22,725 nt of DNA from a virus (IMGVR_UViG_2681813227_000023:1-22725), one strand, 5' to 3'; shown: positions 10,580 to 11,309, numbered from the stretch's first letter. Notes: generated by a model from the letters alone, not told the origin. Program-made: numbers and translations.

Positions 10580-10860
10580 TGGCTAACCTGCAACTTGCCG
10601 TCAAAGGTGAATACTTCGATGCCATGATTCGCGGGGAGAAAACGGAAGAGTATCGCCTGTGTAATGACTATTGGAATAAGCGAATTATGTTCCGGGAGTA
10701 TGACCGCCTGATTATCACAAAGGGATATCCGAAGCGCGACGACTCCAGTCGCAGAATTGATGTTCCGTATGGAGGATATGAAGTGAAAACAATCACACAC
10801 CCCCACTTCGGTGATAAACCGGTAAAGGTATACGCGATAAAGGTGAATATTGATGGCTAA
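10579..10860 (+). CDS. ASCH-like / DUF3850-like phage protein (93 aa)
   Basis: MANLQLAVKGEYFDAMIRGEKTEEYRLCNDYW follows the DUF3850/ASCH-like pattern (K.EYF.A...G.KT.E.R.ND). Confidence 0.5.
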   Translation: MANLQLAVKGEYFDAMIRGEKTEEYRLCNDYWNKRIMFREYDRLIITKGYPKRDDSSRRIDVPYGGYEVKTITHPHFGDKPVKVYAIKVNIDG

Positions 10861-11191
10861 ATCAGCAGCAGAGCGCAAAGCCGCTCAGAGAGCCAGACAA
10901 GCTGAATCCGGTGTACGTAAGCTGGAGATTGTGCTTGATGCTCAGGAAATTGAAATGCTGGAGCGTAACTGTGCCACGCGTCGCCCCGGGCGTGCGCCTT
11001 ACGAATTTGGTGAGTATATAGCGTTACTGATCCGCCAGGATGATGCACGCGTGCGCGGGCGTATAAAATCGATCAGCAGAAAACGTTGCGGTAAGTGCGG
11101 CGAGAGAGTTCCAGTTAATTCATGCCCGTGTAATGGTGACTCGCAATGCTGGGTGACTAAAGGCTGGCATGAAACGAAATTAATAGTGTGA
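10853..11191 (+). CDS. Hypothetical zinc-ribbon protein (112 aa), candidate regulator immediately upstream of the packaging genes
   Basis: ATG 10853; basic N-terminus (ERKAAQRARQAE) and C-terminal CGKCGERVPVNSCPC motif. Its stop codon lies inside the 14-bp palindrome at 11187..11200. Confidence 0.45.
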   Translation: MAKSAAERKAAQRARQAESGVRKLEIVLDAQEIEMLERNCATRRPGRAPYEFGEYIALLIRQDDARVRGRIKSISRKRCGKCGERVPVNSCPCNGDSQCWVTKGWHETKLIV

Positions 11192-11200
11192 CATGTCACG
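11187..11200. promoter_or_regulatory. 14-bp motif TGTGACATGTCACG with perfect 12-bp palindromic core (copy 1)
   Basis: Identical 14-mer recurs at 13452..13465; the two copies bracket terS and terL. Confidence 0.4.
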
Positions 11201-11240
11201 AGTAGATTATGCATGATAAATTTGATGGGTTTTGAATACT

Positions 11241-11266
11241 GCCGCCAACTATGGCGGCTTTATTTT
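11241..11266 (+). terminator. Rho-independent terminator-like hairpin upstream of the small terminase gene
   Basis: GCCGCC-AACTAT-GGCGGC followed by TTTATTTT; followed by direct repeats ACTATTACCAC (x2) before the terS start. Confidence 0.55.
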
Positions 11267-11309
11267 GCATGGTACTATTACCACAACGGTAACTATTACC
11301 ACGGTGGTT

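Follow-up and report, generated by a model that had tools for sequence, protein, structure and literature searches.

The DNA analysed here, referred to below as the window, is a stretch of 22,725 nucleotides of viral origin (IMGVR_UViG_2681813227_000023), and the interval considered, 10853-11309, is where the early genes of an epsilon15/phiV10-like prophage give way to its DNA-packaging genes. It contains, from left to right, an open reading frame coding for a 112-residue protein, a palindrome that overlaps the stop codon of that frame, a hairpin followed by a run of T residues, and a pair of direct repeats immediately ahead of terS. Across the region the window shares 92–98% DNA identity with the epsilon15/phiV10-like podoviruses (genus Uetakevirus), and it is a prophage of this genus.

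Organization of the window

The gene order of the window matches those of epsilon15 and phiV10. The order begins with a leftward-transcribed RecE/RecT operon and the prophage repressor gene (3847..4431, minus strand), after which come a Cro-like gene, genes for replication and a group of small accessory genes that lies ahead of the 112-residue protein gene. The small terminase subunit gene, terS (11313..11906, plus strand), matches Pfam Terminase_2 (E = 1.5e-29) and phrog_51; we place its start at the ATG at 11313, and there is a second in-frame ATG at 11310. To its right are found, in order, terL, a minus-strand accessory unit, and the portal, protease and head genes. An Rfam scan gave a tRNA as its sole match. 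In an earlier note on this DNA it was remarked that neither a Q homologue nor a lysis cassette is present here, and both observations hold: the window ORFs that were screened match no antiterminator family, and the lysis cassette of epsilon15 and phiV10 is located beyond the tailspike gene, outside the span of the window.

A terminator, a promoter and two operators ahead of terS

The hairpin at 11241-11258 has a 7-bp stem, of which six pairs are G-C, and a 4-nt loop, and is followed on the plus strand by TTTATTTTG, which extends to 11266-11267. The equivalent hairpin is annotated as a rho-independent terminator in the epsilon15 RefSeq record, and relatives from other genera have different hairpins with a T-run at the same position (GAGCCTCTTCGGAGGCT, ACCGCCGCTTGGCGGT and ACCGCCAGATAATGGCGGT). 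There are five terminator-like matches between 10000 and 12500 where 2.5 are expected, and as a class these are not above shuffled sequences, so that the support for this particular hairpin comes from the conservation of its position with differing sequences in the relatives and not from match counts. Its description as terminator-like in the earlier note is borne out by the G+C-rich stem, the T-run and the retained position, and these features identify 11241..11266 as a true intrinsic terminator at the end of the early-right operon.

Directly after the T-run there is a probable extended −10 element, TGGTACTAT (11270..11278, plus strand), with a predicted transcription start near 11285. The pattern TGnTAnnAT is kept in four other lineages, as TGTTACTAT in epsilon15, TGTTAGTAT in Superficieibacter, TGTTATGAT in Rahnella and TGGTATGAT in Samsonia, while the neighbouring bases differ; no −35 element is recognisable for this promoter. 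The two direct repeats reported earlier ahead of terS are present as exact copies of ACTATTACCAC at 11274-11284 and 11292-11302, 18 nt apart. Most of the first copy is held within a repressor-type operator, O1, ATTACCACAACGGTAAC (11277..11293), and most of the second within another, O2, ATTACCACGGTGGTTAT (11295..11311), which covers the terS ribosome binding site. These operators are 17-bp inverted repeats of the form ATTACC-N5-GGTAAT, and O1 overlaps the last 2 nt of the −10 element, a geometry that is identical at a PL-like promoter (10/12) elsewhere in the window.

Sites of this form are distributed in the window in a highly non-random manner, with eight present where 0.03 are expected (allowing at most one mismatch), and all eight are intergenic. 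Those at 3711 and 3774 lie beside the PL-like promoter in an OL-like position, and that at 4486, which has a weaker copy at 4534, covers a PR-like promoter in the gap separating repressor from cro and is OR-like; the others are at 6817 and 6879 before a RuvC-like gene, at 11277 and 11295 before terS (the two direct repeats), and at 14442 before the portal operon. The lambda repressor represses only two early promoters, whereas here operators also precede the RuvC-like, terS and portal blocks and, in epsilon15, which has 11 such sites, the tailspike and lysis genes as well. The epsilon15 RefSeq record already carries a protein_bind feature, 'repressor, lysogeny', at positions 12..27 before terS, a feature that was itself assigned by prediction. 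The presumed binder of ATTACC-N5-GGTAAT is the product of the prophage repressor gene (phrog_8), a clear homologue of SPC32H Rep (structure 5D50; E = 1.9e-41) with 17-bp palindromic operators flanking its gene, and we infer from this arrangement that the operators are those of the prophage repressor.

The protein family to which the 112-residue protein belongs is present in N15 and in Vibrio phage K303, and these phages have essentially no such operators (one in N15 and none in K303), which argues that the repeats are not its target. As judged from the motif, the ACTATTACCAC repeats represent a pair of adjoining operators of the prophage-repressor type, and not a private target of the 112-residue protein. 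Most likely, terS is served by a repressor-controlled promoter of its own downstream of the terminator, in which case read-through of the hairpin would not be needed for terS expression; in our interpretation terS-terL is a transcription unit in its own right, one that would be directly repressed in the lysogen. The proposal that a late-gene control point lies before terS can be retained to the extent that this is a transcriptional control point, but control would be exerted through a terminator and a directly repressed promoter. A junction of this type, in which a terminator is succeeded by a repressor-controlled promoter, is ordinary, and it is annotated already in epsilon15.

The 112-residue protein

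The last gene of the early-right operon (10853..11191, plus strand) codes for a 112-residue protein of the epsilon15 gp49/N15 gp46 family (phrog_536). Its ATG at 10853 overlaps the stop codon of an upstream ASCH-like ORF, and its homologues likewise start with MAKS or MAKT. The description of the product as a basic protein with a CxxC...CxC motif is confirmed: the pI is 9.6, there are 23 lysine and arginine residues as against 14 aspartate and glutamate residues, and the cysteines are at positions 40, 79, 82, 91, 93 and 99, giving the motif C79-x2-C82, C91-x-C93, plus C99. The match to phrog_536 covers residues 1-111 (E = 3.2e-54), and tblastn finds matches in epsilon15-like phages, N15 and phiKO2; the protein is about 80% identical to gp49 of epsilon15 and about 35% identical to gp46 of N15. 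Epsilon15 gp49, phiV10 p55 and N15 gp46 are members of the same family, and the window provides another member that is nothing different in kind; in epsilon15 and phiV10 the gene is likewise the last before terS and is accompanied by the same palindrome, terminator and operator. PHROG 536 has the label 'transcriptional regulator', which is itself a prediction and not traceable to experiment, and a literature search found no experimental work on the family.

A protein search yielded 718 clusters for this protein, distributed over many enterobacterial genera; the representative search comprised 150 clusters, and an alignment was built from 58 sequences. In this alignment C79 and C82 are invariant, C99 is nearly so, and the fourth cysteine is at position 90 or 91, so that the family pattern is CxxC-(7-8)-C-(7-9)-C; an N-terminal helix with the sequence ERKxxQRxR is conserved. 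Searches of Pfam and NCBIfam identified no family covering the protein, and it has no match to Pfam Ogr_Delta. The matches to Pfam RHH_5, RHH_1 and RepB-RCR_reg are weak and occur in only one or two of the 58 family members (E = 0.01–0.07), and there is a similarly weak match of the 112-residue protein to NF008671, a LexA-regulated protein model that hints at YbfE (E = 0.07). A profile search against PDB sequences aligns residues 48-109 with TraR and YbiI (E ∼0.03), with the fourth cysteine of TraR unmatched.

An AlphaFold2 model of the monomer (pLDDT 92) places helices at residues 5-19, 30-42, 52-74 and 100-107, with an extended segment between the first and second and the cysteine knuckle between the third and fourth. 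The beta-alpha-alpha fold of the ribbon-helix-helix (RHH) superfamily is present in this model, according to which the fold of the protein is a ribbon-helix-helix plus a four-cysteine knuckle. Foldseek searches of the PDB and BFVD returned an RHH protein and a 46-residue fragment of the same family, and nothing further. The protein is very probably a nucleic-acid-binding regulator. In comparison with well-known RHH repressors (Arc, Mnt, CopG, MetJ and the antitoxins MazE and ParD) it has in addition the conserved basic helix at its N-terminus and the Cys4 knuckle at its C-terminus, and it differs from them in that the putative sites of the family, described below, are at the 3′ ends of operons or inside genes and not at its own promoter.

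A palindrome that accompanies the protein family

The TGA stop codon of the 112-residue protein gene (11189-11191) sits within a perfect 12-bp palindrome, GTGACATGTCAC (11188..11199), which is a putative site for the protein. The gene had been said to end inside a palindrome of 14 bp, and it does end there, but the perfect part is 12 bp long, the outer T/G pair of the 14-mer TGTGACATGTCACG (11187-11200) being non-complementary. The 12-mer is found twice in the window, and the second copy (13453..13464), which is identical over the 14-mer, is on the far side of terS-terL, such that the two copies bracket these genes. The first copy is invariant in 11 aligned relatives in which the flanks diverge, and the second is kept at the equivalent place in epsilon15 (position 2142) and phiV10 (position 2262).

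The epsilon15 genome contains three perfect copies of the palindrome where 0.1 are expected. One overlies the gp49 stop codon and is separated by 22 nt from the annotated terminator stem-loop that follows, one lies beyond terL and adjoins a terminator, and the third is on the stop codon of the last gene of the structural operon, 2 nt before an annotated terminator stem-loop. There are also three in phiV10, placed as in epsilon15, although two are listed, as the end of the linear record cuts through the copy at the stop codon of the gp49 homologue. N15 similarly has three copies, one of which is on the gp46 stop codon (GTGACTGGTCAC), and in phiKO2 the single copy in the 8-kb stretch examined is on the stop codon of the homologue. 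Vibrio phage K303 has three, two of them approximately 20 nt upstream of start codons, one of which is that of terS; a second ORF ending at the K303 site at 33227 was looked for and not found. Each of epsilon15, phiV10, N15 and K303 thus has three copies in a genome for which 0.03–0.1 are expected. In a relative of K303 that is 75% identical, the sites are at the corresponding places, and two of the three have new central dinucleotides while all of the half-sites are unchanged.

This pattern extends to a broader collection of 21 homologue loci from 21 species (53–87% identity), in which there are 34 copies in 407.6 kb against 0.39 expected. The palindrome is over the stop codon in 11 of the 21 loci and is 3–5 nt after a different stop codon in three more; no palindrome is present in one homologue locus (L095) or in an Aeromonas phage stretch (L006). 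That the palindrome stays in place when the stop codon moves shows that it is under selection as a DNA element, whatever the coding sequence. The half-sites GTGAC and GTCAC are invariant and the central dinucleotide varies, a combination more readily explained by a dimeric DNA binder than by an RNA stem. Moreover, the palindrome tracks the protein family over four unrelated phage architectures with hosts ranging from Vibrio to Escherichia. We infer from these comparisons that GTGAC-N2-GTCAC is the binding site of the 112-residue protein, with the link between the two being one of co-occurrence and due in part to the shared ancestry of syntenic prophages. The beta-strand residues vary in the 58-sequence alignment while the half-sites do not, so that reading of the bases would need the conserved N-terminal helix (R8 and R13), which is unusual for an RHH fold.

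Scanning of viral contigs with the 14-mer TGTGACATGTCACG identified at least 120 stretches, 46 of which also contain a homologue, and this fits one gene-linked site among about three per genome but, with stretches this short, is not decisive. With a single protein as query, the homologous loci recovered from viral contigs were all 97–100% identical, too similar to be informative on covariation; the Aeromonas homologue as query gave no related loci and the Vibrio homologue only two. Three other roles for the palindrome were considered and dropped: it has the wrong spacing for a CRP site, it is far too rare for a methylase or restriction site, and it is not a plausible pac site, given that there are three copies per genome and none is near cos in N15. 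No paper with the palindrome sequence in a phage context was found in the literature searched; the pairing of protein and palindrome seems to be undescribed and constitutes a modest, testable new lead.

Surroundings of the palindrome and of the gene

A terminator-like hairpin is located within 70 nt of 21 of 44 palindrome copies, as compared to 8% of random positions, and in 19 of these 21 the palindrome is on the upstream side of the hairpin. All three copies in the epsilon15-like phages are terminator-adjacent at distances of about 1–55 nt, with the palindrome upstream. The second copy in the window conforms to this, as it is 4 nt from a terminator hairpin (13429..13448, minus strand) that lies between terL and the minus-strand accessory gene and has a good T-run on the minus strand. 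In other phage types, many copies are inside genes, such as N15 repA, or 12–19 nt upstream of start codons, in front of ribosome binding sites, and not beside terminators, and a terminator-linked role for the palindrome cannot therefore be general. Nor is the gene consistently linked to terS, which follows the homologue in seven of the 21 species and does not in the other 14; what comes next in those is a NinB-like gene, an integrase or accessory genes. We conclude from this distribution that the protein is not a dedicated terS regulator.

Discussion

Our favoured interpretation, to which we assign a probability of roughly 0.6, is that this interval is the junction between the early-right and terminase operons, with a repressed terS promoter, and that the RHH protein and its sites are a separate system. 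Under this scheme the last early gene would code for a dimeric RHH DNA-binding protein with a C-terminal Cys4 zinc knuckle, whose probable cognate site, GTGAC-AT-GTCAC, overlaps the stop codon of the same gene. The intrinsic terminator would end early-right transcription, and a sigma-70 extended −10 promoter would drive terS-terL, with the two adjacent 17-bp operators covering this promoter from its −10 element to the ribosome binding site. The packaging genes would then be switched by repression and derepression at their own promoter, as would be the case at the other operator-marked promoters, and Q-type read-through of the hairpin would not be involved in terS expression.

The earlier note had drawn attention to two other systems, the first being lambda Q with its pR′/tR′ arrangement, in which there is likewise a small regulator gene upstream of a terminator that precedes late genes. 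Here the zinc protein would load onto RNA polymerase that either sits at a promoter in the gap separating the ORF from the hairpin or arrives from upstream, and the hairpin would be read through into terS. Besides the layout, this could accommodate the palindrome lying upstream of a terminator at all three positions in epsilon15-like phages, as well as a weak sigma-70 match, GTGACA-18-CATGAT (11188-11217), that overlaps the palindrome in a manner reminiscent of the Q-binding element at pR′. That match is, however, the sole one between the ORF and the hairpin and scores 9/12, and such matches number three against 3.4 expected in shuffled sequences; no conserved promoter lies between gene and terminator, and the spacer from palindrome to hairpin varies from about 18 to 60 nt among the 11 relatives and is not conserved in sequence. 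The likeness to Q itself was not upheld, since a Pfam scan of the ORF and the 58 family members gives no Q-family match and the modelled fold is RHH plus Cys4 knuckle. In N15 and phiKO2 the protein family occurs alongside a distinct Q-like protein, with a late promoter located elsewhere, antitermination at the second palindrome copy would send antisense RNA into terL, and the conserved, independently repressed terS promoter downstream of the hairpin and the presence of terS after the homologue in only a third of the species also count against it; we consider an antitermination role very improbable. Hardly credible is the other suggestion, that the protein acts in the manner of P2 Ogr and P4 Delta, binding to the two ACTATTACCAC repeats to activate the terS promoter. 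A small, basic, cysteine-containing protein is indeed encoded beside repeats ahead of late genes, but the repeats belong to the ATTACC-N5-GGTAAT set that also occupies the OL- and OR-like positions and other gaps between gene blocks, N15 and K303 have the protein without the motif, and the repeats span the −10 element to the ribosome binding site, a position suited to repression and not to activation. The likeness to Ogr and Delta fails for the protein as well, in that the Pfam match is absent, the fold is different, there is no upstream activating site geometry, and the cysteine spacing is unlike the CxxC-about 22-CxxxxC of Ogr_Delta.

A different question is whether the palindrome is the target of the 112-residue protein at all. 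Some host factor, or a different phage protein, could recognise it instead, or it could act as an RNA hairpin that stabilises or processes 3′ ends, with the 112-residue protein binding something else. As RNA, the 14-mer forms a 5-bp stem closed by a CAUG loop, and many copies are at transcript ends. The bacterial groups of all known hosts of the family carry MatP. The half-sites of the phage palindrome equal those of the 13-bp matS site of E. coli, GTGACRNYGTCAC (PMC6907758). Set against these points, the palindrome follows the protein family through unrelated phage architectures and remains at the gene end though the stop codon moves, the half-sites never change and show no compensatory substitutions whereas the would-be loop is variable, as is the signature of a dimeric DNA binder, and the spacer is 2 bp in contrast to the 3 bp of matS; we regard another target for the protein as unlikely. 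The resemblance to matS also raises the prospect of a non-transcriptional organiser, where the protein would bridge two or three sites and so loop out terS-terL, or would keep host condensin-type complexes off the phage DNA. MatP likewise contains an RHH, binds GTGAC...GTCAC half-sites that are few per replicon, and is among the structural matches of the model of the 112-residue protein; there are similarly few sites per phage genome, two of them bracketing terS-terL, and the extra C-terminal domain could mediate higher-order assembly. The 112-residue protein is nonetheless without the four-helix bundle or coiled coil of MatP, and palindromes with a matS-like N3 spacer are absent from the genomes scanned, the phage sites there being 12 bp long and having 2 bp at the centre. 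Sequence comparison gives no support for homology, as neither the ORF nor the 58 family members match Pfam MatP and hhalign against E. coli MatP, for which the homologue search supplied near-identical E. coli sequences only, gives a probability of 0.5%; an organiser of this type is in our estimation quite improbable.

Returning to the junction of two operons that we favour, with its separate RHH system, the protein would bind to three sites per genome, at the end of its own gene, past terL and where the structural operon ends, and once accumulated it could be a roadblock or insulator that reinforces operon boundaries against transcription entering the next unit. Of the roles considered, that of a tightly bound dimer of this kind suits most of the positions; we hold it weakly, and a roadblock just ahead of a working terminator looks redundant. 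A more general formulation, which we put forward tentatively and consider less likely than not, is that the RHH/Cys4 protein and GTGAC-N2-GTCAC are a portable cassette serving either, in epsilon15-like phages, as a programmable boundary at operon ends beside intrinsic terminators, through a roadblock or a modulation of termination, or as a MatP/matS-like organiser of phage DNA. Such a cassette would be common to epsilon15-like podoviruses, N15-like linear-plasmid siphoviruses, P2-like myoviruses and Vibrio phages, with one site fused to the stop codon of the gene and two or three sites per genome.

The distribution of operators suggests that in this group of phages the prophage repressor acts directly on the packaging, head, tail and lysis operons to keep them silent, in place of a lambda-style cascade. 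The family of the 112-residue protein, a very common prophage protein for which we find neither a Pfam family nor a published function, now has a concrete candidate DNA site, and if it is true that the protein acts at terminator-proximal sites, this would represent a new way for phages to set the boundaries of their operons.

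Sequence relationships of the terS junction

The junction between the ribbon-helix-helix/Cys4-knuckle ORF (10853..11191) and terS has a close match in the Klebsiella pneumoniae ATCC 13883 chromosome (10320-10480 of the locus retrieved), where about 140 nt, spanning the palindrome (GTGAC-N2-GTCAC), spacer, terminator hairpin, operators and the start of terS, are nearly identical to the sequence in the window, whereas the protein encoded there is only 77% identical to the ORF product. This disparity between junction DNA and protein suggests that the junction was recently exchanged between hosts or phages.

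Palindrome copies at other positions

The palindrome is not always followed by terS. In the Citrobacter werkmanii and Pseudocitrobacter prophages (10339-10420 of each locus) it lies at the stop codon of the homologue of the ORF product, and what comes next is a LexA box (TACTGTGTATTTATACAGTA in the former, a near variant in the latter) and an accessory gene rather than terS. A sequence similar to these LexA boxes, TACTGTTTAAATGTACAGTA, follows the +193 palindrome in Erwinia dacicola, and one of the three N15 copies (33237-33248) is within the replication gene repA.

In the window, a further copy with one mismatch (GTGACATGGCAC, 16497..16508) lies within the gene after portal, and phiV10 has a one-mismatch palindrome at the same place (position 5306); this may be either a chance occurrence or a degenerate fourth site. 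One palindrome of Vibrio phage K303 (33205-33240) has a flank, aacttggttactaaggcGTGAC, similar to the sequence with which gene 46 of N15 ends, aagctggccattaaagcGTGAC; since no ORF ends there in K303, the segment may be the relic of a duplicated gene end together with its site.

Accessory genes and repressor-type operators

The early-right accessory block of the window, which includes an HNH-endonuclease-like ORF (7248..7856), differs from its counterpart in epsilon15 and phiV10. Another accessory unit, on the minus strand in the interval that separates terL from the portal operon, contains a tRNA-Arg gene (anticodon TCT; 14044..14120), after which there are terminators and a 123-aa gene (13469..13840).

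Operators of the repressor type (ATTACC-N5-GGTAAT) are located at 3711, 3774, 4486, 6817, 6879, 11277, 11295 and 14442, in gaps between genes and ahead of the main gene blocks. Epsilon15 has 11 such sites, and its tailspike and lysis genes are among the blocks that they precede. The placement of these predicted operators implies that the whole genome would be under direct repression, rather than controlled through a regulatory cascade.
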